A stretch of 64,000 nucleotides of DNA from Bugula neritina (taxonomy: Eukaryota; Animalia; Bryozoa): positions 19,050,628-19,114,627 of the forward strand of contig OZ037767.1 in the NCBI GenBank assembly GCA_964035545.1, given 5' to 3'. This document shows, in pieces, positions 202 to 63,243 of the stretch. A program made the position numbers and the translations under genes. The notes beneath the pieces were generated by a model, which had not been told where the DNA came from, searched no databases, and saw only the letters and a program-made list of their open reading frames with translations. The first letter of the stretch is position 1; each line of letters begins with the position of its first letter.

Positions 202-3200
202 CTTGAAAATTATCAACTGATGTAACTTTGACCTTCTGATGATCAGAATTTTTTAAATCTTGCATTTTCCGTTTGATTTTTATTTCTTGACCTCTGTACA
301 TTGTTATGATGGTGATTTGAGAGCAATTATAGTCTTGTTTCAGTAAATAGCTTAATGTAAGGTACACAAAATAGATCTTATTTCATACACATCTTTATGA
401 CTATAACACAGGATGAGCAAAGCATATTTATACAAACAACTGTCTAGACTCTAGAATTTAGATTCTGCAATAAAAGACCGACACCTTCAAAGCATCTGCA
501 TAATTCTACAAGGGGAAAAGGGTGGGGGATTATGAAGCAATCGTAAATTAGTAGCGAAAGTATAGCACGTGGTGTGCTGTAATAGCAAATCATACCACAA
601 TAAAATTATTTGTAATGCCAAAACAGTATGGGATTGATGTCACTGTTATTTTACATCAAGCGCTCTGTTTCATGTTAGTAACAAGTTTTGAAACAAAACT
701 CATTGCCTACATATTATACCTTCATCATTCTCACAGAAATAAAAATCATAAACAAATATAAGTTTATTGTCTATAAGATGTGGAAACATTTCACTACCAG
801 ATCAAACCAAAAAATGAAATGTAAATGAGTTATCAGACATCTTGACATTAATAGGTATACTAGGTGAGATAGTGCATTTGACATGTATGGTATTTGATTA
901 CATTTTAGAAGATAGGACATAGCATATAGCGCTACCTAGATAAAGTTACAACCATATGTATTATATGACAAGCCAGTAGAAAGTCACTTAGTTAAAGCTA
1001 AAGATATATTATATGACATGGTATTAACATATGGTTACCTGGCTAAAGCTACCACCATATCTGCTTCAAAAGTGTTAGATTTGCTCATTAATCCCTGTTC
1101 TTCTTCTTCTGGATTTTGATGATTGAAGAAAAACACAGACTTGGCCATTCCTATAATTAATGTGCACACAAATATATTTGTCAATTTACCTACAAGATCA
1201 TTGAGGATTTCCAATAAATTACTGCATTACAATACTTCTATTAAATGATTATGATAGATTAAGATTACAATAAACTATGAGAACAGATATAAAAATAACT
1301 CATGTGCCACATATCTCATTTGGGTTAAAACTTTCTGTGTTCAATAAAATCAACTAGACCCATCATTATAACTTGTACTATTTGCTCCTTATCAATTTGA
1401 TTTGTTACCCTTATAATATATTTGTTCCGTAGTGAAATGGTTTACATTTATAATTATTTATTATTGATTATATCAACTGATCAATGAAGAATGTTCACCT
1501 TTGACAAACTGTCTGTTCTCTACAGAATGGTGGTCATCCAGCCTGTCGTAGATGTGTCTCATATACTTAGACACTTCTGGTCTCATCCTATGCTGTATGT
1601 TGAGAGTTTTAACAGGGAGTCCGTTATTAACCATTCTTTCAAAGAGAGAGAGGTCAAGGTGATACTGCTTAGCAAGGTCATAGACTGTGGGGCTCGGTTT
1701 CAGCTGCTTGTGGTCTCCTGGTATAAAAGAGAACCGCAACAGATTAACTATAACAGTAAAGCTTCTGACATAAAAAATTCTGATAGCCTACTTTTTTTTA
1801 CTCAGATTAGTTTATCAGTATTTTTGATAGATTAGCCAATGGAAACTTTCAAAATAGTTATCTGGTAATTAATATTTGCTATATTTTTTAGCTGGGTACA
1901 ATCTTAGTTTTCTAAAACAAATAGGCGGTTCTGATTTTCTAATATCTTGAACTTTAAATAATTTCCATAGCTATAGATACAAAACTTAATTGCTCAGCAT
2001 ACAACATATATAACTAATTATTACATATACCTTACAAATTATGAATTCAAGGTATGAATGCTGTTCTAGTGAATATAATATACTCAAGTAACAGTTCAGT
2101 CAATCTGTTTAAACATCGACGATATTTAGAAATTCAAAATTTTAGAATACGAAAGTATGAAAACCAAAATCTTCAAAACAGTTGAAGTCGAAAGTAATGT
2201 GTCTGTGTGCAACAGCTGTATATTAGGGTAATTTGTTATTATAGGCAGTATTTTATTATTGCATTTTGGAGTTGTCTTCTTGCGGAGCTAGCATTAATAA
2301 GTAGATAAACCAGCAACATGCAGTTAATAAATGCAGGTAATCAATAATGTTACAACTTTATATTTTTTTTAATGGACTCAGAAAAATTTTAAAATATGAA
2401 AACGTTTCCAACAAAATAACCAGCAAAAATTAGGTATTACAATAAATTAACTGATGAGAATCATAGCTGTTGCAACAAAATAACGAATAATAATGGAATG
2501 TTATAACAGACTAACCAATGAAAATGAGGTGCTACAGCAAACTAACCAATAAGAAGGAGGTGTTAAAACAAACTAACCAATGAGGTGTTGCAATAAATTG
2601 ACCCATGGTAATGAGGTGTTACAATAAACTAGTCAATGAGAATGAGGTGTTACAATAAACTAACCAATGAGAATGAGGTGTTTACAGTGTTTACTCAGAG
2701 CTGTTATTATGTGAGCTTCAAGAACTTCTGCTGCTTCCTCCACCACCACAATCTCTGGTCCAACTTGTTGTAGAACTGACTGCATTCTAGCAGCTCCAGT
2801 AGTTGTCATTCCAATCACTTTGGCTTTCTTTAAAACGTCAACATCCTGCCGATTTCTGCAAAATAATCAGACCATCAAGAGATTATGCATATTTATATAA
2901 TTGTAATACTTCTTTATGTTAGAGTTCAATAAAAAATATGTTTGACCAAAGTCTAATTCATTTGACAAAATTTGAAGCCTTTTCATAACAGCTATTACTT
3001 ATTTGTTTTACCTAAATTTAGTAATTTTGATTTGGCTAAGTGATGAAAAATTAAAACATAGTAATTTATATTAAAAACTATTTAATCCACACACAAAGCG
3101 GTGGTTAAGATAAATCCAATCTGTTATATAGGAATAACTGTAAAAAATGAACATAACTTAATGTGTACAGAGATCATTATATAGAAAGTAGAAAGACATC

Positions 3201-6200
3201 CAGCCTAGCTGTAATAATAATTAACATTTAATCTTTAATTGGCATTTCAGCATTTCCTTAAAACATTTTTTATCAAGCAGTTTTTTTATACATAATAGAG
3301 CAGTGATGGTGGCACATTTTCTTGTTTGTTGCCTGTTTAATGCAATTTCAAACTTTTGGAAGTGGTTTAAAAATTCACCTCGCCAAACAATGTTTAATAA
3401 TTGCAAACCCGCATCAGTCTTGTGTAAAAATTAAATTATAATGCTGTAAAAACAATTTCTATGGCATAAAATAATGAAGCAGAATTATAATATGCTCAAG
3501 TCCAATCAGTTACAAGAACAGTACACAATGTATACTTTATAGAAACATGAGCTCAGCTACCACCATAACTGAGATAGGCTAGGGGCCTTGGCCATTTATC
3601 TACTAATTAAGAAAAACAAGAATTTGGTAAGAAGAGTGCTTTATTCATTAATTTTAAAATTAATTATGCATTTCTTACTTTGTGTTTCGTTCCTGCTCCA
3701 ACAGCTCTTGAAATTCCTGCAAACAGTTTTTCATTTTCCTGTGGGTTTCTTCATAGTAGTACTTATACCAGTACAGGTACAGCCGCCACCTGTAATATTA
3801 GCACATGTATCTATTAGTGTCTCTACAATCACCAACTGTAATAGTAGCACTTTCATTAATACTGCTATAGTCACTGACTGTATTAGTGGCACAGGTACTG
3901 TAGTGCCATTATAGCTTATTGTGCCATCTGCATATTGTGCAACATTTTACATTGCAAAACTCAATTTGATAAAAAGGACAGCAGGTTGCATAATTGTTGC
4001 ACGCTATTGTAGTTTAAGCTTTATTCCAGCAACCTAACACAGCAAGCCATTCTTATGTTTTTTTACTATCACTATACTTAGTTTCTTGTTACAATAAAGC
4101 AAACACAAGTGTTCCCTTCATACTAACAAACTGCAACTGAAATCTTTACATCTATGTGTTTACAGAACTCTAAAAACAACTTACATATATCAACACTTCA
4201 ACAATAGCTACTTTGGTTTAAAGTCTGCTAACTGAGACAAATAGACATACATAACTTGTACCAGAAGCTAGAAATTTGAGTTTATTTGCGGTTTAATCAA
4301 TTTATATTCTCATACAAACATTAAATGACTTCTAATATGACCGTTAAATGTATCATCTTTCAAGTAACTTTTCGAAGTGCTTTTATCTATCAAAGAATGT
4401 ATGTCAACTGCATCTTTGCAAGGTTTAAATTAATGCTCTACACTTTTAGATTGAGAGGTTGCCTTCTATTATCTACATAAATGTTTTATATCTTTCTAGG
4501 CTGTTTTAAATGTTAAAATTGTTTGCATATATTGTAATGAAACTAATAATATATGTTGCAGTTTGTTATTAAAAAAAATTAGTAAGTCTATATAGTCATT
4601 ATCCCTGTAGAAAACCCCTGATAGAAAAGGTTTTTTAAATCTGGCTAAGGAATTATTTATATGTGGTTCTGGAGAAATTATTGCTGGATGTTCTTGCTAA
4701 CATTAACATAATTACCGAGCCAGTGCTCTAACCTCTAACCTCTAACCTCTAACCTCTAACTTTTAGACCATAGCTGCTACTTGTTGCAGTTTAATGATGA
4801 AAGTTAGGAAATATTTTTATTAAAACAATGTGAAAATTATTCATACTATGATAAATTACGCAGTCACATGACCTACCTCTCTTCTACTGACAAGTCATGG
4901 GCAATATCAACAATATTAGAATTACAATCTTCCTCTAGTAATATTACTTTATCTTCGGTCATAGCCTCTTTGTTCAGTATATGCATTATTGAGCTTTCAG
5001 TTTCGAGCAAAACAGTGGTGTCTGTAACATTTGTTTATATCATTTATGAAAAAACGATTTTAAGAACATATAAGAAACTAAAATGAATTATAAAAAATGA
5101 ACAGTCAGTTGAAAGCTGAATGCGTCTTTAACAACACATTGCCTAATGTCTTGTGTAATAATATATAAACTTTTATACCATTCTATTTAGCTGCACAAGT
5201 AAAATAAAAAAAAAAGAAACGAAGGCTAAACTGGAGCAAGAAATGGACAAAGCACTGAGAGACCTTAACAACTTTGAAGAGCTATATGTGGAAACACAGT
5301 GGAAAAGTCTCAAAAAGTTAGTTTACAAAACAGCAGAAAAAGTATGTGAAAAGCAGCTAATCGTAAACATCAAGACTGGTTTGATGAAACAGATGAACAG
5401 CTAGCGATTCTACTAGAACAACGGAACAGTGCACAAAATAATATGCTAAAAACAAACACACGATCAAACAAAAACAAATATACAGCAGCAAAGAACGAGG
5501 TGCAGAAATACACGAGGAAGTTGAAATCAGACTGGTGGGAGGCAAAGGCTGAAAGTTTACAACAGGCAGCAGATATCAATGATATGAAATCATTTTATGG
5601 AGGACTACGGGAAGTATACGGACTAGATAGAAATACAGTACTGCAGGAGAAGTCAGAAATCCTCAACAGATTTGCTGACCATTCTGCTCAACTCCTGAAT
5701 ATACCTGGTACTCTGGATGTAAGGGCTGCAATGGATATTGAAACAAGACCGGAGGTACACTGTCTCTCTGAGCCCCCAGAAGTAAGGGAAGTGATAGATG
5801 CAATTGACTATATAAGATAAGGTAAAGCACCTGAGAAGTGTGGAATTCCATCAGAAATATGGAAACATGGAGGAACAGAAATTTTGTCTAAACTGCACCA
5901 GCTGATCTTTTTCTGTTTGGAAGGAGGAAAAGGTACCTCAAGACTGGAAAGATGCTAGCATCATCCCGATATTCAAGAAAGGCAGCTGAAGAGATTATGG
6001 AAACTACAGAGGAATATCCTTGCTCTCTATTGCTGGAAAGATACTCTCACAAATTCTGCTGAACAGGATCAACATGCATGTTGCTCCAGTTGTGCTACCA
6101 GAATCTCAATGTGGCTTCAGGAGTGGTAGAGGTACCATGGACATGATCTTCTGTTTGAGACAAACACAGGAAAAATGTATAAAGCAAAACATGCCAATTT

Positions 6201-9200
6201 ATGCTGTTTTCATTGACTTCATTAAGGCCTTTGACACTGTATCAAGAGATGGCCTCTGGCAAGTTCTCATTAAGTGTGGATGCCCTGCCAAATTTGTGAA
6301 CATTGTCAAATCTCTACCTAGTGGTATGCAAGCTCTTCTGTGGCATATGGAAATGATCATTCTAAAGAGTTTGCAGTGACAAACGGTGTTAAACAAGGGT
6401 GTGTTCTTGCACCTACCCTCTTTTCTCTCTATCTGTCAGTCATGCTAGAGGTTGCGTTTAAGGACTGCTCAAATGGAGTATCTATCCAAACAAGACAAAA
6501 TGCAGACCTCTTTAATATAGCTCATTTTAAAGCAAACACAAAAACATCTCAGAAGATCGTAAAAGAAATGCTATTTGCTGACGACAGTGCTCTGGTAGCT
6601 CATGATGCGCAGAGTATACAGCGGCTAGTAGATAGATTCTCTTTGGCTGCTAAACAGTTCAGCTTAAAGATAAATATAAAAAAGACAGAGTGCCTATACC
6701 AACCAGTTAAAAACCAACATGTAGTGCAGCCTCCTGGTGATATTATAATATATAATGAAGCTCTAGTGCAAACAAAAAAATTTCATATATATCTTGGCAG
6801 CACAATATCTGATGATGCCAGGCTGGACGGCGAACTGATCTCCAGGACGGGAAAAGCTATAGTGCAGCCTATGGGAAGCTGAGAGAGAGACTGTGGGACA
6901 ACCACCATGTGTCCCTTCAAGTAAAATGCCAAGCATACAAAGCGATAGTTTTATCCACCTTGCTGTATGGGGCCGAAACATGAACAGTTTATAGAACACA
7001 GGTCAAGAAGCTAAATTTATATATGACGAGGCATTTGAGAGAAATTATGAAGCTAACTTGGAAAGATAAAGTTTCAAATCACGAAATATATAAAAGAAGT
7101 GGTTTAGCTCCAATGGCAGATATGCTCATTGAGCCTAATCTGAGATGGACTGGTCACATTCACAGAATGGATAAAGAGAGACTAACCTAGGCAGCTGTTC
7201 TACTCACAACTGAGTTCAGGGAAAAGGAATTAGGGCCGTCCTCGTCTCAGATTTAAAGATGTAGTGAAAAGAAACTTAAACTGGAGAGGAATTAGACAAG
7301 ATACTTGGCAGGCTGCAGCTAACCGTGGACCTATATCTGGAAAGCTATGATTTATAGACCTAAACCTAGAACAGTCATCGTCGACTCGACGCTAGCTGCA
7401 TGTTTTAAATAAAGGTACACTTTGTCTTTCTAGTAAAAACATGATGAAAAAAGTTGGCAATCTTGAAATAACATTGTTTCCCTTTTTTACAGTACTGTAT
7501 ATTCATTTGCTATAGTCTTCAAAGAAAAGATAAAACTTTACAATCAAAATTTTAAAATCAAAGTTTACACTGCAGCTTTAAGCAGAATAAAATAGCTATA
7601 CATTAAGGTTATGTGATTCATCACTATAGAACAGAAATAATTTTTATGATATAGACCAACATAATATATAGACTACGTTTTACAGGACAGAAAAATATTT
7701 TTTATAGCAGTTTCTTATACTTAAGTTCTAAAATCCTTAAAATTGTGAAGTTAAGGCATCAGCATAGAATGATGATGCCTTAACTTATGATAATATGATA
7801 ATTAAAAACATTCCATGCACATTTTTTCAGGTATAAAGTGTACAAAGACTGTTGACAATAATTGACATCAAAAGGAAGAAATTGTTACACATGTGCATGA
7901 GATGAAAATAGAAAATGTGGGAATGCATCCAATACCTTTGTCAAAGTCCTCATCATTCAACCCATCAATGAGTCTACTCTCTTCTTCCTCACCAATATCA
8001 TCATCTTCAAATAATGAGTCTAAAAGATTTTGAGCAAACAGTAACAATGAAAAGATTAATATAGTAATAATATAACAGCGGTGCTGATCAATGAGTAAAT
8101 CATATTAATAAATATAATACACGTCAACGATTGTTCACATAAATATAAAAATAAAATAAAATAGTTAAAAGGGATTAACAGAAAGTAATTTCTTAAGGCA
8201 AAAATCAATTTATTTTTAGCACTCTATGACAAGCATTCAAATAAAATTTACAATTATAACATGTCTTGCAAAATTTTCAATTAAGTTTAGTAATTTATTT
8301 TTTCTCTATCTGACTTCACTTGTAGTTTTCCAAACCAACTTTTCTTGCTTCTACGTAAAATTGTAGTAATAATTTTACTTTGCTCTGTAAAATATTACAA
8401 ATTCAACTTAATTTATTTTGTTTTACCAGCAGCAGAATTGGATTGGGAAAAGTTAAAAAGAGTATGCTTATTCTGAAAATTTCTTAGTCTGCTCTTTCCC
8501 TCTTCTTTATCTAAAATCATAATTTTGTCTTTCAATCTAAGTAAAATACTTCCTACTGCAATAAAATGCAATTAATATTTTTTTTTAAATTTTCGCTTTT
8601 TAGAGCTTTGCTTTGCTTTAAATTTAAGTTTACTTTTACATAAACTTTGAACTAGTTATTTTGTTAAAAAAATATTGTAAATTGTCAGCTAGTATCAACA
8701 TTTGTAAACTAGCAGCTTATATGGTTAAATTTAAATTGAATTAAATTGTTTAATGTTATGTAGCCAAACCATTCTATTTTTATATTTGCCTGCCTGTTTG
8801 TAACCAATTCTGAATTTTTTGTTCTTCAAAAAGATTCATGTTATCTTTAAACAGATCTCTTAGCTGACGAGCAAATACAAACTGTTCTGGGGGAATCAGA
8901 ACAGCCACTTCAGTCATTAACTCATGTTTTTGCATCTTTTCACATCTTACAGCCAGCTCTTCATATCTTGCCTAGAATTACAGGGTTTTATGACAAATTT
9001 GATTTAATGCCAATGTGTGAGCTTGTTGCAGATTTAAAATTTGAAAAGTAACTGTCAATCAACAGAAATAAACAGCTTGCTCAGTAAATTACCATTATGT
9101 TGCAACAAAATATTGGGTTTAGCATTAAAATATATTATTATATGTAGATGAAGTGCTTATATAATTTATTGTTGAAGTTATCTGCTCTTTGTTTATATAC

Positions 9201-9336
9201 CCTTATGCAAACTACTGCCCGCTAATAAATGAAATTCAATTTTATTCTTTATTTGACTTTGTTGTTTTTTATTTATCTAACTTTTTACCTGGCAGCAGAA
9301 AAGTTCTAGAAATTAGACAGCCCACCTAATAAAACA

Positions 9337-9430
<94 letters not shown>

Positions 9431-12400
9431 GCAGTCTAAGTAGTTTAATGCCATTAAGTTTTTTTTTACATGATAAAAGCTGTCATACCTGAATGCTTTT
9501 TTTCTGCGAGTAAATTCTGCCAATTTCAGACTTCCAAAACTCTTTGCCAGTCAAGTGTGGCCTTTTTGAGGGAAGATTACATTTCTTTAGCTTTTCACTT
9601 TTACTTCTCGAGCCAACTCGCACAACATCTAAACACATATTAACTCTTTTTACGGTTAAAGACATTCATTTAAGTTCTCTAAATATGCAAATGTCCAGAT
9701 TTTACTGTAAAAAGTAATCGGATACTGAAGACATGCGTTAATTTACTTTTTGATCAAAATCGCTGCTAAATTAACATACCGGATGATTCACAAAACACAA
9801 GAATTCCTTCCAAGAACTGATCCAATGCATGGTTGGTGTAGCATACAATTAATAATGGCCTGTTCATTCTGTTAGGCAGTTCGTTGACAAAGTAGTGAAA
9901 TGGGTCGTCCGATTTAGTAGCAGTCATACTGCGTCTGAGTGAGAGTTTGAATGATGAACTAAATAAGTTTTCAATAAGCGTCTCCACAATCCGCAAACCA
10001 ACATAAGTCTTACCAGTGCCTGGAGGACCTGCAAATAAAATATTTATTAAAACAAGCTTTTTTCAATGCATTACCATCAACCACATACAAAATTGACGGA
10101 AATCGCTAAATGCAGCCCAAAGTTTAGAGTCACTGAGTGCAGTATTTGTAGTCACATCACTGTTCAAACTCCAAATCTAAACTCGATATAGTAGATGCAC
10201 CCATTCACACAAACCACTCTGCTCAATGACCCCATACAGGGTGCTGCATCAGCGATTTTCAAAATTTGCAAGCTTGATAAATCATCTGAGACCAATTTAT
10301 TGTGATAATTATATTGATAAGTATGTGAAGGTTTAGGTGTCAATATTAAGAATCTCAATATTATATTATATAGTTATGAAAATAATATAAATAAAAAAAG
10401 GTTATATTTAATTTTACTGTGAAAGTGTTGGCCTAGTATATTACTCTAATTATACTGCATATAATATTAAAATTACCTGAATACTTTTTAGAATGTACTA
10501 AAACTAAGGAATAATGTGTCAGATGTGAACTAAACACCGCGTGACAACATGCTGTATAATGAAAAGTACTAATTTATGCCCAAGAATTTTTTGAACAACC
10601 ATTTATTTTTATCAATTACTTTCTGTCAGGCTTAAAACATTTTGATAGTTAAAACTATGGAAAGTGGAATTTTAAAAGAGTAGGTACTTTGCAGAAATTT
10701 TTCTTGCCTAAAATTATCAGCAGCAGCTAGTCAACACAGCAATATTACGTGTGAGCACAAAGTAGTGTTATGTGCAGATCACACAAATAATTTTCAATAT
10801 ATGAAATAAAATAATATGATATCAATTAAGCTACGAAATCCAAGTTGCATTGCTGTCACTATTGCCTCATTACTAACACAATAAAATTAAACTGACAAAT
10901 AATTTCACTGACATAATTATATTCAAACAAATCTAGCAATAAAATATGATTAAATTTGTTAACATGAAAATTCAGATTAATTAATATAATAATTAAAGTT
11001 CTAATTGATATTCTCTTATTTTGTAATATTAAATAATATTTGTCCCAGTAGTTTTTCTGAAAAATTATATCCAATATATTGATAGATAAAGTTTCTTATG
11101 GTACAAATCTTTCTAAACTATAGCTGTGTTTGATCTGAGGAAACACCGTATACCTTGTATCACAACAAACTCTTTGGTGAGAGCAGTTTTGTACGCCTCA
11201 TACTTTGAATGGTTAAATTCCATTTCCTCTGCTGGTGGCCAATCCTCAAAGTCTTGTAGAGGTACCGGAGATGTGAGACTATTTCCTGTGGGAAGTTCAT
11301 AAGTAACTCCTGGCTCCAAATACATTGGTGAAACTATGTCTGTAGAACATCTAGAAAATCATGCTTTCCTTTAGAAATAGAACTCAACTAAAAGTTTTTT
11401 ACGAAATTTTTTTTCAAAAGTTGTTCAATATGCTTCAATACATTTAGAGCAAAATATTTTGTGCTAATCATGTGAAATCAATGGAGACATTGTATTAGTA
11501 TGCTTAACAGTTGCAGTTGGGTTCAGCAGAATGTAAAACATATGAAATTATTGGGCGAAAATTCAAAATCTAAAATATAAAATAAAAATCTTCAAATTAG
11601 ATGTTTTGGAATTTTGACTAATAATCCTTATACTCTGCGGCTTTAAAATCTATTTAGACCTAAATAATTTCAGTAAAAATGCTCCACAATAATGTAAATA
11701 CAAGTAAGTATAAAATCAGACCTGACAAAATATTTTTGGAATGGTAGTGGGTTGAATGAAGTGAACTGTTGTAACCCTCTAAGGACATGCTGGTAGGCTT
11801 CGTAATAGCTTGCACTTTCTATTACTGTGAAGGGACCTCGTTTGTTCTGTGAGGAATCATAGTGAATTTGGGACTTGGGGAGAAACTTTATTTTTATTGT
11901 TCTACCATTATACCATGGTGTGTTTTTATCTTCTCTTTGGGACACTGTGGCAAATAGGGTGGATTCTGGTAAAAATCTGTCAGTTGAGAGGCAAATCAAG
12001 GAGCCATAGATCAGTTTTTTTGACTTTACCCATATCGAGTTTCTGAAAGCTGGCTGGTGGACAGGCAACCTTGTGAGAAAAAGTAACATTCATTAGTAGT
12101 CATTTTTCCGGTTGAAATAATTTTAGAAAGGAAACTTTAATTATACCAAGGACTGCCTTCATTTTAGATTTTTATACTTAGACTCAACCAAGTTAAAACT
12201 TATGTAACTTAAAAACATTTTCGCAAATATTACAAGAATTAGCCAACTCAACTAGCTAACATGTTTTGTGCACAATTAAGCTTGGTCATTGTAATTCTAC
12301 AAAATGTATATATGTAAAACAACAAAAAAGTTTTGATTTAGTTTAACTTGAATAATGAAATGAAAACCTTAACTGCAGGTTAGTGAGCTTGTTTTACAGA

Positions 12401-15342
12401 ATCTATAACCATGCAAGGCTGGCAAGAATATTACTATCTCATTGCAAATTAGCTAAAATAAAAAGCTACCATTTAAATTATAGACTAGAATTAATTATAA
12501 TTTCAACCCATGTTAAAAATATAGAGACCTCACAATGCAGAGTTTCCCCTTTCTAGTAAGCTCCTCGTGAGTGATTTCAAACTCAGTGTACACTTTGCAG
12601 TTGTCATGGTGGAGCTTTCTTCTACCACCAATATGGGAATTCTTTCTCAAATTGCGAACTCCTTCTCGAATAGTGGAAATGAAATCTTCACGAAGAAGTC
12701 GGAATTGAGTGTCGAGGTAGTCATCTGCATCCTCATATCCTGTTTAATTATTATATGGCAAAAACATCTGATTTGGTAACTATATATGTATACATTATAG
12801 CATGTAACACTCAATTTACCTCTTATAATATATGTATAGTGCTTTAATTGTGGACTTATGTTAGTTGAATATTTCAAAATTTTTCACAATTGAATATTTT
12901 TTTTTGAACTATTAAGCTACCTTGAAAATAAAATTTAAAAAAGAGACTTATCTACATAGAAAAAGGCGCTTAATTCTCCTACTTCTGGCAGGCTTTAGTA
13001 AAGATACTGAAATTATAAAGTGTGCATATAATTTATTCACTCCCTCACATACCTCCAGAAACTTTGTTTCTCCTTAGGCTGACTTTAAATGCGGGGTCTA
13101 TGTCTTTAAGCATAGGTTCAACTGACATACTTCTGAAGTCATCCAAGGGTCGCTTCTCTACACAAACTCTTCCCTTCCTGGCCACATACTCATAGTTCTT
13201 TGCTCTGTATAGAAGCAATAATTATTATTGCGTTCCAGTATCAATGTTGCAATATATATAAAATACATAATTTTTTTTAATTTTGGTTTATTCTTTAAAC
13301 TTAACAGCAAACATGGTAATTATTTTAGAATTTAATTTTACTACTTTTAATTGAAAGCAATCTAAGCAATTAGGTTTAATTTTTTAGCAAGTTGATTTGC
13401 ACGCCAGTATTGTCAATACTATAATAAGCTCTGTGTGACGTTGTTTACATTAGTCATTGCCAGTAAGTCACAACAAATCACAACATGTTTCAGCATGTCA
13501 CAACATGTTACATCATGTCACAGCATGTCACAGTAAGTCACACTGAGTCAAAACATGTCACAGTATATCACAATATGTCACACCAAGTCAAAACATGTCA
13601 CAGTATGTCACAACAAGTCACACTGAGTCACACTGAGTCATAGTGTCACAGACACTTCTAACACAGAGCACCTATCTAATTATATATATGCCTATGTCGT
13701 TAACAAAGTTATTATGCATGTGCCACATGCACTTGTTAGCAGCTTATATCTTAGCACACACTTTAACCGCTGCGAGGTAGTCAAAAAAATTTTCATGCTA
13801 TAAACCTCTTTATACTCACTGCCCACTTTCCTCAAGCTCCTGTTTATAGCATTGATCAGCTAGCTGAATGACGCTGTCATACTCAGCCAGAATACTGGCA
13901 TAGGAGTCAAAGTTTGAAGGAAACGTTCCTTTAAGTATTTTTAAACAAGGCGCTAAGACTTTTCGACTTAAAGGATCAATTCGCAGCAAACTGTTGTAAA
14001 CTTGAAGAAACAAGTGTAGCGATTTTATCAACTTTTTTGGAGGCTCTGCTTGAGACACTAAAATTTCATTCTCCAGTCTTTGCTTACAAATCTGCATTTA
14101 AAAAAATAGTAATATTTTAATAATGAAAACCAAAAACATACCGTTCATAAACACTTTTCTGCTGCAAAAAGAACATTGCAGAATATTTTAATATTGTCCT
14201 ACAGTGTGTTCTGTAGCTGCAACTAACAGCAATGCAAGAAATGCTGAGCTCACTAAAACTGTTATTAGGCGGGTCCAAATGAAACTTGCATTTAGAAAAG
14301 AGAAAGCTAATTGACAGCTATTATACTCAAGACCCTACAATCCAATCAATCTTACCTTTATGGGGGGGGGGGGGCTTGAGCAGTTTTGATGTTACATACA
14401 GTACAGTATGAAAATCTCTTGCAATAACTTTATGACAAGGCAGAAAAGACCCTATATTTAATATTGGTGTTTCAATTTGCATTTATATAGACTGCTTCAA
14501 GTTGGGTTTCTTAATACTCTAAAACCAGCAAATAAGACAATTCCTCATATTTAAAAGTTTTAACTTTTTTCGTTATATGTCATTTTAGCAGAACCTTAAG
14601 TTAATAAAATGTGTATTATATGTTTTTAGCTGTAATAACATCAGCAACTATACCCACCTCTGTGAGAAATTGAGGTTTGTTAAACAGTAGCTCAGTCTTC
14701 AGATTATTTTTATAAGATATCATTATGTCATCAACCTCTAGTGATGTTGCAATTGCCTGTAGTTCAAGGTCGATCCAGTCATGACCCTTCTCACTGTCAG
14801 TGAGCAAATCTAGGAAAGGTTCCTCGCAGCATTTTATGATCGCCTTTACTGGATCTGCTGCGGCAATTTCTTTCAGTCTGAAAAATTGAACGACTTCTGT
14901 TTAATGTGAATCAAACTAGAAGCTTTCTCATAGAAGTAAGCATAAAAATTTATTTTATGATTATATTGAAAATGTTTTGATTGGTTTAGAGACTAAGGTA
15001 ATCAGCCATGAGTTATAAACTATATTAGGGTTAGCAGCTAATAGAAAATAAAACCAATCAATGTATATATATAATGGGGAGAACTACCATTGGCTAGCCA
15101 TAAAAGTAGTAATAATTTCTAATGATGTTTAAAAATAAACATCAGTGAGTTATTGAAGTTTTAATTTTATTTGTACCAAAGAATTGAAAGATGAAAATAT
15201 ATTGATACTGCAGTTTAGCTAGATTAAATTAAACCCAACACATAAATTTCATACTAACTCATTAAACTCAATTGGCCTGCTTCTGTAATATTTTCTGCAA
15301 GATTCTGAACTGCCGGGCTCTTCATTGTCTTCATCAGACTCC
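202..15342 (-). CDS. ZNFX1: ZNFX1-like SF1 (Upf1-like) RNA helicase, paralog A; multi-exon, 3' end beyond left edge, extreme 5' end unresolved
   Basis: Phase-consistent exons in minus-strand order: 15259-15342, 14658-14877, 13820-14091, 13053-13204, 12529-12739, 11722-12069, 11154-11350, 9780-10028, 9489-9628, 8794-8971, 8427-8510, 7936-8019, 4877-5021, 3679-3789, 2665-2855, 1499-1717, 1039-1150, 202-350. Motifs: [44 protein letters not shown] (Walker A), [69 protein letters not shown]. No stop or frameshift found. Confidence 0.93.
2410..2687. repeat. ~31-bp minisatellite derived from a ZNFX1 exon/intron junction
   Basis: Repeated unit ACTAACCAATGAGAATGAGGTGTTACAATAA. The last copy is the real exon end (HLILIG) plus its GTTAGT donor. 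Confidence 0.8.
5196..7392 (+). mobile_element. Degenerate 5'-truncated RTE-clade LINE inside a ZNFX1 intron (antisense to host)
   Basis: RT fragments [62 protein letters not shown], with several frameshifts and stops. Flanking direct repeat TAGCTGCA at 5188-5195 and 7393-7400 (probable TSD). Confidence 0.9.
9341..9429. repeat. (AT)n microsatellite
   Basis: Pure AT dinucleotide run. Confidence 0.98.
13466..13650. repeat. 10-bp tandem repeat (GTCACAACAT-like) in a ZNFX1 intron
   Basis: GTCACA core recurs every 10 bp. Confidence 0.9.
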
Positions 15343-22057: not shown

Positions 22058-22090
<33 letters not shown>

Positions 22091-22867: not shown

Positions 22868-23112
22868 CTCTACTAATCAAAAATTTTCGATCAACGAAAC
22901 AACAAATTAAAGCTTTGCTCTTAAAAAAATTCAATGCTGTAAAATTATTCAAATATTTACAAAATACTTTGATTGTAACATTAACTAACAATAGGGAACT
23001 TCAGTCAACTGAAAGATAATTTGTAGCTTAAAAAATCAAAAGTTTACAGCTATGATACAAACTAATAAATGGCTGTTATAGCTATAGATTCTTTTTATCA
23101 CTGTGATATATC

Positions 23113-23251
23113 TGTAATATTAACCTACCAGGCTAAGCTCTAGCTCCAGAGTATTTTGTGTTGGCTTTCGTTCGGCTATCACTTATCAGTAGCTTTAGTA
23201 CCTGCTAGCTTGTAGCTTGTCAGTAGCTTGTCAACATCGGATCATCTTACA
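23113..23251 (-). mobile_element. Solo LTR of the family at 54049-56711
   Basis: TG...CA ends and close match to the 128-bp LTRs. Absent from the paralogous site (CTGTGAT-GTAAC-CTTAG at ~36422). Confidence 0.9.
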
Positions 23252-35443: not shown

Positions 35444-35562
35444 CTCTGCTTATCAAAAATGTTTGATCGTTGAAACAAAAATTTATAACTATTCTATTAA
35501 AAAGTTTTTAATTAGGTATGTAAAATTATTCAAATATTTATTAAATGTTTTGATTGTAACAC

Positions 35563-43692: not shown

Positions 43693-45031
43693 CTGCCTGG
43701 AAAAACAACTGAACTAATTGGATGATGTCAGAAGAAACCGGTCAACAGAATTTGCTTCCACTGTCACATATAAAAAATATTGCTAAGTATATGAATAATT
43801 AATACCAAAATCTTCGAATTAATGCTCAATACTTTGTAAATTCTGCACTATGCTCTTGTGTGCTTTATACTGTTTTTAAACTTAACTAAGTGGGATTTAG
43901 CTCTACAGTTTTACAAACATACATGACTTTACTTTTACCAACTTGTGTAGCTTAGATTATTATTGTGTTTAGGTTTTGGTTTCTTTATTTATAGAACTTT
44001 GTATTGTAGCTCTAACTTCTAGTCTTTTTGCTAATGTCAATTATTCACGCATAATTTCGTTTTGTTTTCATAAACTTCATTTTATTATTTCTAACTTTGT
44101 TATGACAAATATCTTTCAATTTTACCTACAAACACAAATAAAAGCAAACCACCAAATAATGGTGTAGAGTAACTTTATTTATAATGATGATTTCATAAAT
44201 TTACCAAAAATATTTTGTCTTAAGCATTATTTAGTTATATGTTTAGACAAACAATAAATAGTGCAACACAGTAAATTTACAATTATGCCAAAAACTTTAT
44301 TTAGTAAACAAATACAACATATTCTAGCAAGCACAATATTTCAACTGTATCTGAAACTTATAAATGAAACAATTTTAACCAAGTTCTTTGCTGACTAAAG
44401 ATTCAACTCTTCTGATTTAATGTATTTATCACATTTGTGGAACAGACTATTATAGTGTTGGTTAGCTTCAGTGACAAAGCCATACTACAAAAGTATTGTC
44501 ATACGGAACAATTTTTGTTATTTTTCATCAAACTTGCATGCAATATTTTGCAAACGCTTCAATAATTTTACATATGGTATACCAGCTAGTATCAGCATAC
44601 CTGTTATTCAGTTAACATTAGTGCAGAGTAGTTTGAATGTATTTGCACTGAAAAACTTATTACACATTTCTATTTGAGTTACAGAATACTTTTGCATTTA
44701 TGCCAATGGGGTTTATAATTGTCGATCCTTCAAAAAAGCTACTTTTTATGCAAGCTGAGGAAGTATGATTTTTGTTCTATACATTGGGTCAATAGAAGAT
44801 TATGGCTGACCCTCTTCCTAACATTTCCAATCTTACGGAAGATCAAACCATGGACTATATATAATATGTGTTTACTAAGCCAAACCCCTTTAAACCATGG
44901 ATGCTTTATATAACAGTTCACGTATTATTTAACTTCATGAGGTTTTTGCTTAGATTGATATGTTTTGTCTTACTACTGGTCATATGCATAAAGTACTAGC
45001 TTGAGACAATGAATAGTTACAATTTACTCAC

Positions 45032-53870: not shown

Positions 53871-54048
53871 AGTAGCACTAGTAAACGACTAGAACAGTAG
53901 AAGTAGAAGTAGACTCAAACTGAAAGTTAGGCTTCGCTCACAACTGTTAATGCTTGCATTTAACCAAGGAGAGCGAGTGGCAAAATAATAATTATGGTAT
54001 AGTAGTAGCTTAAAGTTAGTATAATTATATCAAATTAATAGTCAAGTC

Positions 54049-56711
54049 TGTAGTGTTAACCTACCAGGCTAAGCTCTAGCTCCAGAGTGTTCCTTGTTGG
54101 CTTTCCTTCGGCTATCACTTGTCAGTAGCTTTAGTACTTGCTAGCTTGTAGCTTGTCAACATCAGATCATCTTACATGCTCCCTCCTTACAAAAGAGAAG
54201 CAGGGCACAAGAGCGCATTTTCAGAATACCAGAACACATATCTATATTATCATCATCATGATGCTAATAATTCCACATGCCCTTTTCTTTTAAAAGAGAA
54301 GTGCAATCAATTCAAACAAAACTAGCTTTCAACTAATGCCCTTGAATACTTAAACTTATTATGAAGTGGTTCAAAGTGGCTCAGTCCTAGATGTCGAATC
54401 CCACCTCCTCTCATTGCTAGCACTGTTGGGAAGAACAATGCCAAATTTGACATTTATCATATTATCTGCAAGTGAAGTAGCAGCAAGGGTCAAGGCTGAC
54501 TTCTCTTGCTAGCTTGCAGAGTCTTCTATGAGTTAAACTAAGGAACTCACAGGAGCAGACAACATTAGTGGCAATGTTGATGATGTCATGTCAGTACTGA
54601 GGTCAAACCTCACATTTATCATATTATCTGAAAGTGAGATGTCGAGGGTCTGCATATAGACTACACTCGGCTCACACCCCGTGAAGCAACAGCGAGGGTC
54701 ACAACTGACTTCTCTCGTCGGCTTACAGAGTCTTCCATGAGTTAAACTCACGGGAGCAGACAACATTGTTGGTAACTGCTTCTGCCTGTCATTCCATAGT
54801 ATTCCACTGCGATAATGTGTTTATATCATTACAGTGAACATCAATACACTTTTCCATATCTACAACACACATGTATCATTTTATATCAACATTGCAGATC
54901 CAGCAATTTTAACCTAGTAATATCAGCTATACCAAGCAAATTTTCAGTAGAGTTTGCCAATACATAAATCTTGGTATCCACAAATCTGTTGAAGTCGCCA
55001 ATGCAAACCTTAGCTCTGCCTAGCACATTCACCAAAGACTTATCAACACCTGTAATATGCTTATCTGGTTCCTTTAATTTAATGTTCAACTTTTCTGCAG
55101 TCGCCTCAGTAAGTGTAGAAACCTCAGACCCAGTATCTAGCAAGAATTCTACAAGCCTACCACTAACTAGTAAAGTCCTTGTTATTTTAGGACTGACATT
55201 GTGATTATAAGTCACATCACTCTTTTTAGAAAACTTCACTGATTTTAAGGAGTCCATTACTCCGATCCTGTTTTCTCTTTGTTCCACATATCTCTTTTTG
55301 TGATGGTATCTTTCGTTATCAGAACAATCTTGAGCAATGTGGCCAAATTCCTTGCACATGTAGCAACGGGTTTTAGGGCAGTTTCTCACATAATGTCCTG
55401 TACGGTCACATCTAAAGCATCTACCATGACTTTTGTAAGCATTTTGCGATTCATAACTACAATGTTGATATGAATTACATGCCTCCTTTTTCTTTGAAAA
55501 AGAGTTGTCTCCATTGATAGAAGTTATCTTATCATAATTAGATCTATGTAGGACTTTATCTCTTTTCTTACAATGTTCTGAGTTACCATTAGCTTGGTAA
55601 GAATATGTGAGTCTACCAATTGACTGTTCATCTATGCATTCATTGTTTATTGCATTTAAAGCATCCTCAGAAAGTTTACTTAAATGTGCAGCACGACTTT
55701 TTCTTTTCAGCTGTTCCCAGCTTAGGTTAGCATGCTGCAACAAATGTCTACGTAATCCTGTATTTCTTAGACCATTAACTGCTAGTGCAACTGCAAATCC
55801 CATTCTAACATCATCATTATTGCCAAAGTTTATTGCTCTACTTAGCTTCTCAACTCTTAGCAAATAATCAATTTCGTTTTCTCCACAAGCTTGGGTCACA
55901 GTGACAAACTTCATGGTTTTCACATAAAATGTATCATCTCTATCATAGTGAGATTGCAGTAAGTCTAAGGCTAACTCATATCCATCATCAGAGTTATTAT
56001 TCAAATCAAAACCTAATGACTGTAAAGTATCAAGACCTTCTGACCCTACAGCTCCTAACAAAGCTAAAAGCTTTCTCCTACCTCTAAATCTGCTAACCTG
56101 TTCATCCCCTATTACTTCAAACCCTGCATTAAGGGAAGTAACTTCTATACTCAATTTAAATTGAATGAGCCATGAGTTCCAAGATTTGGTTATGTTGCTT
56201 TCATCCAACTTTAATTTGGGAAAAGCATTAAGGTCTAATTTGATGTCTTCATGAGCCATACTACACTTGAGCAGTTTTAATAGAGTAAATAAAACAATTT
56301 AATTTTAAGCAGCTATCTTGTGATTATGCACTGTACTCTCAGTTTCAATCTCTGGGCATCCGTGTCTTTTTAAGTTTAATTCTCAGTTCCTTTCGCAGTC
56401 ACTCTTATTCTGAATCTATTAGTATTCTTTATAAATTGCTCAAAAGTCAACACTCACCACCTTTCTCAACAAGCCTCTCAACTCTTTTTTCCAAATATAA
56501 ACCTCTGAAGTCTAGTGAACTCCTAACAACACACTTCTCTCTTTTGTAACTCTTGTCTCCTCAATATCCTGCTGACTGCGCCATGTAGTGTTAACCTACC
56601 AGGCTAAGCTCTAGCTCCAGAGTGTTCCTTGTTGGCTTTCCTTCGGCTATCACTTGTCAGTAGCTTTAGTACTTGCTAGCTTGTAGCTTGTCAACATCAG
56701 ATCATCTTACA
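54049..56711 (-). mobile_element. Young non-autonomous Ty3/gypsy-like LTR retroelement (2663 bp)
   Basis: Identical 128-bp TG...CA LTRs at 54049-54176 and 56584-56711; 5-bp TSD AAGTC; PBS TGGCGCAGTCAGCAGGAT (tRNA-Ser-like) after the 5' LTR; purine-rich tract before the 3' LTR. Confidence 0.95.
54886..56259 (-). CDS. Gag-protease polyprotein (457 aa)
   Basis: Two CCHC knuckles (CFRCDRTGHYVRNC, CYMCKEFGHIAQDC) and aspartic protease motifs FLLDTGS and NLLG. No RT, RNase H or integrase follows. Confidence 0.92.
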   Translation of the reverse strand: MAHEDIKLDLNAFPKLKLDESNITKSWNSWLIQFKLSIEVTSLNAGFEVIGDEQVSRFRGRRKLLALLGAVGSEGLDTLQSLGFDLNNNSDDGYELALDLLQSHYDRDDTFYVKTMKFVTVTQACGENEIDYLLRVEKLSRAINFGNNDDVRMGFAVALAVNGLRNTGLRRHLLQHANLSWEQLKRKSRAAHLSKLSEDALNAINNECIDEQSIGRLTYSYQANGNSEHCKKRDKVLHRSNYDKITSINGDNSFSKKKEACNSYQHCSYESQNAYKSHGRCFRCDRTGHYVRNCPKTRCYMCKEFGHIAQDCSDNERYHHKKRYVEQRENRIGVMDSLKSVKFSKKSDVTYNHNVSPKITRTLLVSGRLVEFLLDTGSEVSTLTEATAEKLNIKLKEPDKHITGVDKSLVNVLGRAKVCIGDFNRFVDTKIYVLANSTENLLGIADITRLKLLDLQC

Positions 56712-57285: not shown

Positions 57286-57642
57286 TTAGCCTGCCATACA
57301 ATCCCAATCTACACAATACACTGGTACTATATTGTCAGGCATGATTAAACTTGTAACAAAAGCTAGACTAGTATCTTTTATAATAAAATCAATAAATCCA
57401 TTTTATTGTTCAATCAGGTTTCACTATAGGTGCTAAATCACTTTGACTATGGAGCTCACATTTACTAGCAGCGATTTCATATGAAGTCTGTCTGTTAAGA
57501 AGAAATTAATCTTGCTGCATATATTATGAAACAGTTCTGGAAATAAAGAATGTCAAAGAGAAAACTTAACAGGTAAGTTTGATGGCAATGAAAAAAGATA
57601 TGATTGTAGCCTAGTAGTAATAAGGTTAATCAATTTAATAGG

Positions 57643-57645
<3 letters not shown>

Positions 57646-57731
<86 letters not shown>
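57646..57731. repeat. (AT)n microsatellite
   Basis: Pure AT run. Confidence 0.98.
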
Positions 57732-57739
<8 letters not shown>

Positions 57740-58782
57740 AATTTTGCATTTGCTTCTATAATAATGTTGTGTATATAATAATATTCTACATATAGCAACA
57801 AATAATTCACTCCTAAGGTTAATAAAGCGGCTCATTTAAAGAGATATGGCGGCATTTTAGAAGGAATCTGTTAGCTAATTTTGTCTCTGGTTTGTGAAAT
57901 ATTTTTATCAATAATTGTTAAATCAGAATCAAATATAGACAGCAATTTTATCACAGATGAGACAGTTCTTAATACAATCATTGCGATTTAATTTGTCTGT
58001 GATATCTCATATTGATTAAAGTTGAAATAATTTGTAATAAAAACTAAGCACACCTCTATGCTTTATGTGAAACATTCAGTTATTCAGCAGTTGTAATTAT
58101 CTACTTTATTATCCAAGGTAAACAGCTCAATCATCATGTTTTATTCAGTTGCTTCAATGGTAGGACAACTTCTATATATGTTTACAAGAAACAAAGAGAA
58201 GTATAACTACCATATTTACACAGTTTACATTACATTTGTTCTGTGTTAGCAACGGCTTGCCTAATTGTTGTAATACTTGGCAAGAAAATCTGAGTTAATG
58301 TGAATATAGAATTGGATTGACTGCAAACTTGTTAATAAAGCATTATTGTTATCTGCAAGCTGTCATGCTGTATAACCAAGGATGTGCTGATGTCGCAACC
58401 TAAACAGTTTCCTTGCTGCATTCAATATGATAAAAATGTGGGTTAGATTGAAGCTGATTGCATTGGACTGACTTGTGTTTGTAGCCGAAAGTATTGGCCA
58501 AGTTAGGATTGTAGACTCGGTTCTTATATGGGTGTAAACTTGCTTATCATATTCTTCACAAACCAAGTGGCTATTTGATTTACTAGTCAATTTGTTTAAT
58601 AGAGTAGAGTTGTGATGCCTATATAGAATCATTGCAGCACAATAAGCCACATTAACAATTTTAAGTACGCAAGCTTCAGGTATTTGTTAACAAATTATTC
58701 CTGCAATAACCTTTTTGTAGTATAGCTTCTTGCTTCATTGCATCAGTCTCATGATTTATTTGCAGAGATTCTTTTTTTACAG

Positions 58783-61700
58783 TGCATTGAATGAGGGTGG
58801 CAGATGTGGCTCTCCTAACCCACCAAAGAAGAAATACCGAAAACAGCCTATTGGATTTCATAAGTATATGTTTCTTTACTTCTTTGATTATAAGATATAA
58901 TGTTATATTTTACTTCCTTTACAAAAGTCAAGCATAAATCAAAGTATGTGCATGGGTGTTTGGCTAAATTTATTGCAGATATTAGTCCGTCATAGTGCAT
59001 AAAACAAAAGATAATAAAACTATGAAAATTCAAACTGATCAGTAATTTGCACTAAAAAATATATACAGACCGTTTTGTTCAATTAGTGTTTCATGCTCGC
59101 ATTATGTTATTGTTATAATGTTATTGTTATGTCATTAACATATATAAGCAAGCATAATAAAATGAGTGTTGAAGCATTCAAATGTTTCAATTTGTTGCTC
59201 AAGTATAGCTCTTAGCTAGTTATAGTCAACAACCTTTGTAATATTTAGATATACAACTTCATTACCTGCTCTCACATACCAACTTAACTCTACATGCAAG
59301 AAGTCAAAACACGAAAGTATCTGACAGTTATTTATAGCCCCAGTGAACTAATAAAACTCATTGCATTTAAACACCAAATGTTGTATGTAAAATACAAGAA
59401 AGAGAAGAGCTTACAGTCAACAAAGAATTACATTATTACAATACAACCCTAAAAGCATTGTCTGGTAGGCTTTTAAGTTTGCCATTAACTTTATATGGCA
59501 ATTATTTTTACAGTGTCTCTACTTTAATTTTTATAATAGCTATTACGTGGGCTATAATAATATTTCAGACTAAAAGGAATAGCCAATCAAAGCCCAGAAG
59601 AAGCGGTAATAAAGTGCTGTGATGAAATGTTCTTTGAACTGCTGGCTGATGCTGACAAAGGTCAAGACTGGATTGACCTTGAACTTAAATCGATCGCCAC
59701 AGCACTAACTGTCAATGACACAATGAAGTCTTACAGGAATAAGCTGAGCACTGAACTGTTGTATAATAAACCTGAATTCTTGAAAGAGGTGAGTATACAC
59801 ATGTAGAAAGTTTTTATGGTCTGATTTTGTGATCTTGGATTTCCCAGTAGCCCTTGTGGTGTGTTAACACACTAACAAGCAAGCTAGCTTTCATACGGAA
59901 GGTCTGTGGTCTCGAGTCCGAGTAGAGGCAACAATTTTACAGATATCTTCTATAACAACATAGTGCTATAATAATATAGTGCTAATGTGTTGTTGCTTTT
60001 AAACATTTCTACAATTAATGATATTATGATGGAATGATCTGGTAGTATTGTGAGAATTAATAAAGTGTGAATTTAAACAAGATAAATCAATGAAACCATA
60101 CGAAGGTTCTATTTGCCTCCATTATAAGCAACTTTGGATCTCATAGCATTAACCAATTAATAGTAGTTTATGCAAATTGATGTGTTTGGTTCTTAATCAA
60201 TTCATAATATAATAAGAAAAAAGTTTATTGCATAAATGCTAAAAATGTAACGGAGAGAAATAATTAATTTTAAGCGCTATTGGCTCCAAAATGACATGAT
60301 CTTGTGTATGAAACTAGCTATGTAGTTATAGAAACTATTATTACACTTTTTTGATTTAATACTTCATATAATGTTATATAGTTACTAATAATTTTAAATA
60401 GAGCAAAAGGTTTGGTTACCTTTGTCTGTATAGCTCATACTTGAAACCTTTGGTGCTTGCAATATTTCCTGGAACGTCAAGGACAGTAGACATACCTTAA
60501 ATAAACAACAATACTTATAATAATGTCATTAAAATAATTTAATAATTGTTCAAAATATTTTCTAAGGTGCTATTTTTAAATTTTATTCATAAATTATCAA
60601 ACAGCAGTCAATGGCTCTATAGCTATAGCCAATCAATCATCTATATAAGATGGCTTTAAGTGATTTATATTTTCTAGTTGTCTATAAATTTTCTAGATTT
60701 TTCTTGCCGTATAGTTGGTAACTGCTGTCTAAATTTTTTAGATTTGTGTTAAAAGACTAGAGAAGGAACTGCTGACAGGCCAAGCAAAGCCACGACAGGA
60801 GCTGCTCGGCTCACTAAACCAGTTTCTAGAGATATACAACATCCTGCAACGACTTGACCCGTCAACCAGAAAAATCTTATCTTCTTCGCTAAAAGTGGTA
60901 AAAGGCACATTTCCATCAAACTCTGATCATTATGCTGATGTCCAAAGTAAATACGATCGGGTGATCAGGGATGCTCATCAATGCCAGAAGTTGGAGCTCC
61001 AGCAGAGTGGACAGTAAGTGATGAGATTCTGTAACAAAGTTGTATAACAGTTTTCGGTTGTATATTTTGGTAGAGTTGAGATTTTACTGTAGCCTTTGTG
61101 GTGCAATAGTTAGCGTGCCAGTTTGCAAGCTGGAAGTCATGGTTTTGAATTACATTGGGGGCAAAAGTTTTATAACTTTATAGTCAGTTGCAAAAAGTAT
61201 GCATTTATATGTTACAGCAAAATGGGGCTGCCTTTGTTATTTTGATGCTTCAATAGCAACATTTTGTAACATCAATTTGGCTGTCCTGAAGCATGATTAA
61301 CTGTGATAGAAATAGTTGCCACAGGTTGTGAGAATAAATTTTGGCAAATGAAGTTTCTAAACGGTGACTTGGGTGAATTTTCCATGTCACAAGCAAAGCA
61401 ATTTAAGAGTTGCACTTTTTGATGGCAGTTATGATAAAAGTAGATTATTTAGCTGTTCTGTTTGATACTTCTGTAGAGAGGTACAAGTTGTTGCAAGGCA
61501 GGGAAGAGTTTGTGTAGAGGAGCGACCATCGGACGACTTCAGAAGTATTTCAGTCCCACCTACCCTCAAAGACATTGACTCTGCATTCAAAGTCAGTCTG
61601 AGAAAAAACAAGGCCAATGGAGGTTTGCATCATGTGGTCTGTTTGTAATGTGTGGACTGATTAAATTTTGGAGTGAAGACTTATTGGAACAATATTATTT

Positions 61701-63243
61701 TAGCAAAGAAAACTAAAATGCTATAACTATATAATACAAGAGTAAATGTGCAAAAATCAATTAATTGATTTTATATTGTTAAAACTAAACTTACAAAACT
61801 TGATTACAGTTCCTTTAAAAAAGTTATTTACATAATTTTGTTATAAAAGTTTTTTAACTAATTTTTTGTTGATTATTAGTTTAATACCTGCTTTGTAAAA
61901 TGTGTTTCTGTGAAACTAAGGTTCAGTGTAGACTATTTTCCTTGCGCAGTTCTATTGTTGCTTTTAAAATTTGAAACATCTTTGGCGACAGGGATATTGC
62001 TGAGAAACTGTTCATTCACTAATTGTTTGAGTATTTAAAGTAATGCAACACTGCCAAGTTAAAGAGATTATTATGCGTTTATTTAATACAATATATACGC
62101 AAGTAAAACTATATAAGACTTAGAAAACAAGTTACATAATTCCAGACTGAGCATTCACAACTTATTACTAGCTAATTCACTGCCTGACTGCCGGCTATCG
62201 AAGCGCGATAGCTATCAGCTGGATTAGTTCTAATTACTGAGCTCCTCCCATAGTCCATAGCATATTGTAGTGAATTTCCCAATTTACTATATTATGTGGT
62301 TCGACTTATACAAAGCTACTTCACCAGATTGATCACGTTATACAGAGTTTTTTATTTACAAAGATACAATAAATGAACTACTACTAAATGAATTACACGA
62401 TTACATAATACTGAGCACTTTGTACACAACTGCTCTATGCCAAGTCCCAAGCTGCTCTGCCCGGCTAGCTACTTAGTGTGCTTCCACTACGCGTAGCTAG
62501 CTCCACCTGATATCAATTAACAGTCCTTCCTGATTGGCTAGTATTAGTGGTGCCACTGTCGACCATAATATGCATGTCGGCTGGGAGTCGATGTAGTCGA
62601 CCTCCACAAAAAGATAACATAGAGTCAACCCTTTCGATATATAAACTAGATTACTAATTGCATTACTAAAATCCATTACAATATGTTAGTAGCGTAGTAA
62701 GCAATTACTAGCAGGCTGCTACGCATTACTGTAGTAGAAACGTAGTAGGAGAGTTGTCCTTTCAACAATAAAATAACTCCTACACAAAATCCTTACAATA
62801 ATATCACAACTAAAACATTGGCAAACCTCAGCATAGTTAAATATTCTAAAAAAAAATTTCGTAACTAAACATTTCAAAAAATAGTATTTACTCATAATTT
62901 TTTCGGTTTTATACTAATTGCAGTATTTTTTTAAATAATTTCTTTAAAGTTGTTGTGTTTTGATATAGGATCCAGAGGTAATTAAAAATATGTAACTGGT
63001 AATTTATAGCTTGTTTGAAATATTTTCCGTAGGATATAAAGATCAGGACGATTACTTGGACACCCAGTTTCGACTTCTCCGCGAGGATTTCATCTCAACT
63101 GTTCGAGAAGGAGTTCGAGATGTGAAAAAAAATTTGCATAAAGCCAAATCCGGAAAGCTCAGATGTGACAACTGTAGGGTTTACACAGAGTTTGAAATAA
63201 AGTGTGAAGAATTGACATGGGATGGTAGACTCTGCGTGGTTAG
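58783..63243 (+). CDS. ZNFX1: ZNFX1-like helicase paralog B, N-terminal exons (continues beyond right edge)
   Basis: Exons 58783-58863, 59569-59788, 60742-61013, 61477-61622, 63033-63243 mirror paralog A exons (220, 272 and 211 nt lengths identical). Motifs PSDDFRSISVPPT and [13 protein letters not shown]. Start codon not located. Confidence 0.9.
62266..62680. mobile_element. Probable solo LTR (415 bp) in a ZNFX1-B intron, possibly nested in another repeat
   Basis: TGTAGTG...CATTACA termini flanked by ATAT on both sides. Confidence 0.55.

Follow-up and report, generated by a model that had tools for sequence, protein, structure and literature searches.

What does it mean that ZNFX1 genes, endophilin-B genes and genes of a probable Bcl-2 type lie side by side in the bryozoan Bugula neritina? 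We analysed a window of 64,000 nucleotides (assembly GCA_964035545.1, contig OZ037767.1, positions 19,050,628 to 19,114,627) with a guanine-cytosine (GC) content of about 32% and multi-exon genes, whose models rest on splice signals, open frames, conservation from copy to copy and homology. Two outward-facing ZNFX1 genes, ZNFX1-A on the minus strand and ZNFX1-B on the plus strand, bracket gene B, two endophilin-B genes and gene A (Table 1). An earlier note had interpreted this arrangement as a possible linked module of sensor, regulator and membrane effector; what it observed was mostly right, and its interpretation was overstated. On balance, we favour a local, lineage-specific neighbourhood, built by a single tandem duplication of 11 kb and likely by two earlier, independent ones, over one inherited module.

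Table 1. Features of the window (LINE, long interspersed nuclear element; LTR, long terminal repeat; ORF, open reading frame)
Feature	Position	Strand	Structure or evidence
ZNFX1-A	202..15342	-	17 modelled exons, start exon tentative; leaves the window on the left ahead of the part that encodes the zinc fingers and E3 module
LINE reverse-transcriptase fragment, broken, in a ZNFX1-A intron	5350..6882	+	PF00078, E 1e-16 and 1e-10
Gene B, likely divergent Bcl-2/Bok-like	20545..23298	-	219 aa, 6 modelled exons (first tentative); the model lacks a C-terminal membrane helix
Tandem-duplication unit 1 (5' part of gene B and endophilin-B copy 1)	21480..32537		self-blastn
Solo LTR, kin of the 54047-56711 element	23111..23251		85% identity to both LTRs of that element
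Endophilin-B copy 1	23691..31925	+	N-BAR in 7 exons (23691-31162), then stop or short tail
Tandem-duplication unit 2	32537..43967		self-blastn
Truncated gene-B copy, 5' exons only	32546..36487	-	a donor and an acceptor missing, LINE pieces gained; either a pseudogene or an alternative 5' half
LINE reverse-transcriptase fragments, unit 2 only	33270..34820	-	PF00078, E 2e-11; gap in self-alignment
Endophilin-B copy 2	36903..43410	+	N-BAR in 7 exons (36903-42483), then stop or short tail
Gene A, paralogue of gene B	45032..46915	-	147 aa, 4 modelled internal exons
Young LTR element	54047..56711	-	gag-protease ORF only, two identical 128-bp LTRs; self-comparison and Pfam
ZNFX1-B	57550..63243	+	first 6 exons (317 aa, no stop); 5' third, remainder beyond the window

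Duplications of different ages

The two tandem units are 83.6% identical over 8602 aligned columns, and each carries an entire endophilin gene head to head with the 5' part of gene B. Since the tandem junction lies 9 bases beyond a gene-B donor, copy 2 is left without the last two gene-B exons. Because one 11-kb unit holds both, the second endophilin and the truncated gene-B copy, listed as a pseudogene in the earlier note, are one event and not two, and the doubling of all three families therefore gives no independent support for a module. A haplotype or assembly artefact was considered and rejected, as the copies are 84% alike and both are covered in DNA run X1 by their own near-identical contigs at a depth of about 113–145, like unique sequence; no listed contig spans the junction.

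The three pairs also differ in age. Synonymous divergence (dS) is 0.18 between the endophilins and ranges from 0.65 to 2.4 among the four shared ZNFX1 exons taken one by one, whereas genes A and B are far older, with 23% identity over their best exon. Three ages, together with the strand pattern, argue that the families were not duplicated together; A and B both lie on the minus strand and thus did not travel with the inverted ZNFX1 pair. That each family is duplicated is true, but the copies trace to three events of different age, one of which accounts for two additional copies. Prior to the tandem event, the genes would have been ordered ZNFX1-A, gene B, one endophilin, gene A and ZNFX1-B.

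The truncated gene-B copy is not uniformly diverged. In the exon adjoining the junction, 6 of 128 bases differ between the copies (p 4e-5 against a 16% background; three synonymous and two replacement codon changes), and in the exon before it 34 of 142 differ. Within 32546-33288, two copy-2 exons, at 33288-33126 and 32673-32546, have retained open frames and intact donors, and an ATG stands at 33288 on the edge of the LINE insertion; in our model these exons would join in frame to the remaining exons of gene B to encode 189 aa. The copy may thus serve as an alternative 5' half of gene B, and gene conversion at the breakpoint explains the low divergence of the junction-side exon equally well.

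As to the older ZNFX1 pair, the presence of two outward-facing copies on opposite strands was confirmed. ZNFX1-A is open for 974 aa over 16 exons, and a 17th exon is open when the acceptor at 350 is used; its intron at donor 8794 is apparently GC-AG. The exon at 11673-12089 matches Pfam PF25396 (E 3e-11) and AAA_11 and AAA_12 are matched as well, giving the combination of PF25396 with a UPF1-like superfamily 1 (SF1) helicase core, and the gene carries the P-loop Lys-Thr-Tyr and catalytic Glu-Glu residues named for human ZNFX1 in the available text of PMC13710534. The core exon at 1500-1718 is 90-93% identical to three B. neritina proteins and 81-86% identical to three from Watersipora subatra, which are the top 6 of its 118 matches. 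ZNFX1 of B. neritina (KAF6024122/KAF6028545) and of Watersipora (XP_067947233) share the same three Pfam families, and it is the N-terminal third that differs, being fast-evolving here (32-38% identity to Watersipora). Compared with known ZNFX1, the window covers copy A without the zinc fingers and E3 module and copy B without the core, which lie beyond its edges.

The 5' third of ZNFX1-B matches ZNFX1 proteins at E 2e-37. It is 61% identical to ZNFX1-A, compared with 32.5% to the nearest Watersipora protein, and the pair therefore likely split within this lineage. The shared exons, with per-exon dN/dS ratios of 0.14-0.24, are under purifying selection. ZNFX1 is multi-copy in relatives, with the three Bugula and three Watersipora proteins above (the Watersipora three sit on a contig of one and the same length, 64.0 Mb, and two of their accessions are 8 apart), and three genes are described for Aplysia in the available part of PMC9334734.

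Endophilin-B genes and the SH3 domain

The two endophilin-B copies of the earlier note were confirmed, and both are intact genes, each with seven GT-AG exons encoding 253 aa. They are 92% identical to each other, and their dN/dS of 0.25 (Fisher p 5e-6) shows that both are under purifying selection. Exon 2 matches endophilin-B1 at E 1e-7 and endophilin A at 5e-3, which places the N-BAR domain closest to endophilin B. Endophilin B1/Bif-1 (SH3GLB1; PDB 6up6), the best PDB match at E 1e-7, has the same layout of an N-BAR domain with an N-terminal H0-type exon. The present genes differ from it in standing as two tandem copies and in ending after the BAR domain or a short tail, with no linker-SH3 found. 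Past the last BAR exon, conserved acceptors lead either to an immediate stop, which is kept in both copies, or to a tail of 24-61 aa.

None of the 145 plus-strand ORFs of at least 20 aa in 31163-33300 and 42484-48900 matches an SH3 domain at E 0.05. A further scan covered 143 of the 168 listed ORFs, 39 of them downstream on the plus strand, the 25 left out being simple repeats, a high-copy repeat or overlaps with modelled genes. It gave no match to any family, SH3 included, at E 0.005. On the plus strand, the ground covered by the two scans leaves out 33300-36900, the LTR element and the simple-repeat tracts around 49000-49900 and 53000-53900; within it, we found no C-terminal SH3 domain. Sensitivity was limited, as the same kind of search found five of eight true BAR exons, which makes a split, divergent SH3 domain downstream of the endophilins unlikely rather than excluded. 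Within these limits, the description of the endophilins as SH3-less is supported.

In mammalian endophilin-B, removal of the linker-SH3 raises tubulation, and contact with Bax is ascribed to H0 (available text of PMC11799418); both H0 and BAR are required to promote Bax pores, according to the part of 10.64898/2026.06.25.733981 that was available. By extension from this mammalian work, an endophilin-B with H0 and BAR only would escape SH3 autoinhibition. Such a protein would, by analogy, still bind and bend mitochondrial-type membranes and keep its Bax-side function while losing its SH3 partners.

Word-based protein searches with one gene-B exon and one endophilin exon returned no match. One metagenome match to endophilin exon 1, of fungal-like character, was set aside as a chance hit, since it spans 13 residues, has 57% GC and finds no blastn counterpart in the window. 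An endophilin intron of unit 1 only carries a high-copy insertion at 28088-29415, which includes a 115-aa ORF without a Pfam match.

Genes A and B and a probable Bcl-2 fold

Genes A and B share a 132-base exon that is in phase 0 at both ends and closes on a tryptophan. Its ungapped score of 29 was reached by none of 10,000 shuffles and, when 137,163 windows of ZNFX1 proteins served as the control, by 1 and by 0 of them, so that the two genes are paralogues. Local alignment of the whole models was not significant (431 of 1000 shuffles reach the score), and the paralogy rests on that one exon. Exons of both genes recur in short JGI fragments from a near-identical animal (P0119/P0123 for the gene-B exon at 21221-21090, P0120/P0124 for the gene-A exon), which supports them as real. 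A HMMER search with the A/B exon alignment against 1.84 billion representatives found no full-length relative and none from an annotated genome; two of its four matches were JGI fragments of this kind, and the other two were repetitive proteins, which were rejected as relatives. The collection does hold the Bugula and Watersipora ZNFX1 proteins, and the missing relatives are easier to reconcile with a locus that is young or evolves fast, or with gaps in annotation, than with a conserved cassette. Upstream of gene A, two good-looking open exons of about 26 and 23 aa (52899-52609, minus strand) were neither joined to that gene nor assigned to a family.

The earlier note had counted two Bcl-2-like genes and a pseudogene here. 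The window does contain two multi-exon paralogues and a truncated copy, but no tool showed Bcl-2 membership. Pfam gave no match to Bcl-2 (PF00452) at E values up to 10 for any A/B exon, each searched singly at 20-51 aa. Five single-exon searches and one profile search of PDB found no Bcl-2 match, the profile search hitting designed proteins only, and atlas searches with A and B returned no usable match. A one-exon model of the shared exon folded as a helix hairpin (predicted local distance difference test, pLDDT, 78), for which Foldseek found no match at E 0.001, only generic hairpins. These results are to be read with the search power in mind, because the database searches used exons and not the spliced protein, and single exons of 42-50 aa give little.

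Unlike the Bok/Bax/Bak-type genes of the Bcl-2 family, both models lack the BH1 NWGR motif, the preferred models lack the Gly-Asp BH3 core, a result that depends on acceptor choice, and the best last exon of gene B has no C-terminal membrane helix (maximum 19-residue hydropathy 0.81). If these absences are taken at face value together with the silent searches, A and B would belong to some other small all-helical family, and the cell-death reading would be left without a regulator. We regard this as rather doubtful, since both genes keep a two-helix exon that ends in tryptophan at a phase-0 intron, the position of the conserved boundary in BH2, with Gly-Trp in gene B (the full GGW is not kept). 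An exon ends at the BH2 tryptophan across the Bcl-2 family, Bax, Bak and Bok have 4-6 exons, the Bok BH3 is split over two exons and natural NWGR variants exist (available text of PMC8998228). The multi-exon layout of A and B and the intron that splits their putative BH3 helix are likewise of this type.

A glycolipid-transfer-protein fold for gene B was considered and set aside, as it has no Pfam match and fits gene A less well. The shared exon and the start of the next exon of gene B resemble what we take to be the residue pattern of Bok. The Bcl-2 label is thus a likely one by analogy, drawn from the published exon-boundary rule and this residue pattern, and we consider a Bcl-2 fold of genes A and B probable.

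A duplicated neighbourhood, a gene pair or a module

We weighed the neighbourhood against a selected, co-regulated module, in which ZNFX1 would sense viral RNA at mitochondria, A and B would gate the outer membrane, the BAR-only endophilins would remodel it, and shared promoters would keep the genes linked. The parts of the proposal that stood are the identities of ZNFX1 and endophilin-B, the endophilin ends at which no SH3 was found, and the mammalian links of all three families to mitochondria (available text of PMC13710534 and PMC11799418), among them signalling of mammalian ZNFX1 from mitochondria via MAVS (PMC13710534). Only three host families were found in the 64 kb, gene B and the endophilin stand head to head, gene A is oriented away from ZNFX1-B, and a combination of ZNFX1, endophilin and Bcl-2 did not appear in the literature searched, from which most subscription papers were lacking; nor did bryozoans together with ZNFX1. 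The available main text of a lophotrochozoan apoptosis survey makes no mention of Bugula or bryozoa (PMC11463336). Beyond the three ages and the doubling that is not independent, the module is opposed by the distance of gene A from ZNFX1-B (at least 4.6 kb and the young LTR element with the most generous 5' exon, about 10 kb with the modelled one), by the lack of any A/B relative from an annotated genome in the HMMER search, and by the absence of BH1 NWGR and of a modelled membrane anchor. We therefore consider the module very unlikely. Equally improbable is its most elaborate form, a cheilostome antiviral death switch in which ZNFX1 sensors would act with NWGR-less Bok-like proteins and a de-inhibited BAR-only endophilin-B, and in which the tandem event would have added a second promoter and alternative 5' half to gene B, spliced across the first endophilin into the shared BH2 exon.

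A smaller functional unit would consist of gene B and the endophilin, perhaps with gene A, as a co-transcribed Bcl-2-fold protein and membrane-remodelling partner, with ZNFX1 as a bystander. The two starts are 393 bases apart with the tentative first exon of gene B and 822 with the next, identity between the copies is 85-92% in the 300 bases surrounding endophilin exon 1 compared with 84% overall, and endophilin B1 is a known Bax partner (PMC11799418, in its available text). The tandem event, however, copied a whole endophilin but part of gene B. Head-to-head gene pairs are, moreover, common in compact genomes. As the sole functional unit of the locus, the pair appears unlikely to us, somewhat less so than the module.

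Several points weigh against the neighbourhood that we favour. Between the two ZNFX1 genes, the scan turned up no host gene from outside the three families (none of the 143 ORFs has a family match at E 0.005). Genes A and B stay within 25 kb of each other and of the endophilin despite their deep divergence. The three families, all mitochondrial in mammals and the only host families found in the interval, would by analogy show more coherence than a random neighbourhood usually does. The likely lineage-specificity is read from the window rather than from synteny in relatives, the shared promoter of gene B and the endophilin is likewise a probable feature deduced from their arrangement, and the Bcl-2 identity of A and B, a likely label, bears on the neighbourhood as well.

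The simplest account nevertheless remains a neighbourhood prone to turnover that includes a single tight unit, in which gene B and endophilin point away from each other, as suggested by the multi-copy state of ZNFX1 in relatives and an interval rich in mobile DNA. In this neighbourhood, gene B and the endophilin, starting about 0.4-0.8 kb apart, would likely share a promoter, and gene B would encode a soluble regulator or decoy with a Bcl-2 fold and degenerate motifs, expressed together with endophilin. The ZNFX1 genes would belong to an expanding antiviral family and flank the pair by chance. Lineage-specific tandem arrays of invertebrate innate-immune genes offer a parallel in their local duplication, fast divergence and many transposon insertions, although here three families are interleaved rather than one repeated.

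Among the mobile DNA, the LTR element at 54047-56711 has no reverse transcriptase or integrase and reaches a depth of about 1700-4300 in run X1, where unique DNA has about 140. One contig of that run lacks it (joint 54045-56714, depth 106, substitutions nearby), so that the element likely represents a young non-autonomous family and is either polymorphic at this site or matched by an empty site in a paralogous stretch. A very high-copy repeat at about 19250-19950, between ZNFX1-A and gene B, has a summed contig depth of 42,000-78,000 against about 130. Another run X1 contig (depth 121) joins 45311 and 52931, which may be a false repeat joint or a deletion variant that lacks most of gene A. The long simple repeats at 49060-49700 and 52990-53890, of CA type and of trinucleotides, produce false long ORFs.

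What is likely new in this locus is a BAR-only endophilin-B pair together with highly divergent genes, likely of Bcl-2 type, in a locally duplicated region. If the fold is true, genes A and B would be among the most divergent animal Bcl-2-type genes, and a module, if true, would tie the sensing of viral RNA to the permeabilisation of mitochondrial membranes in a phylum with very few descriptions of its cell-death genes. If the locus is no more than a neighbourhood, a pair of endophilin-B genes kept by selection without SH3 would still be a natural counterpart of the laboratory truncation that relieves autoinhibition.

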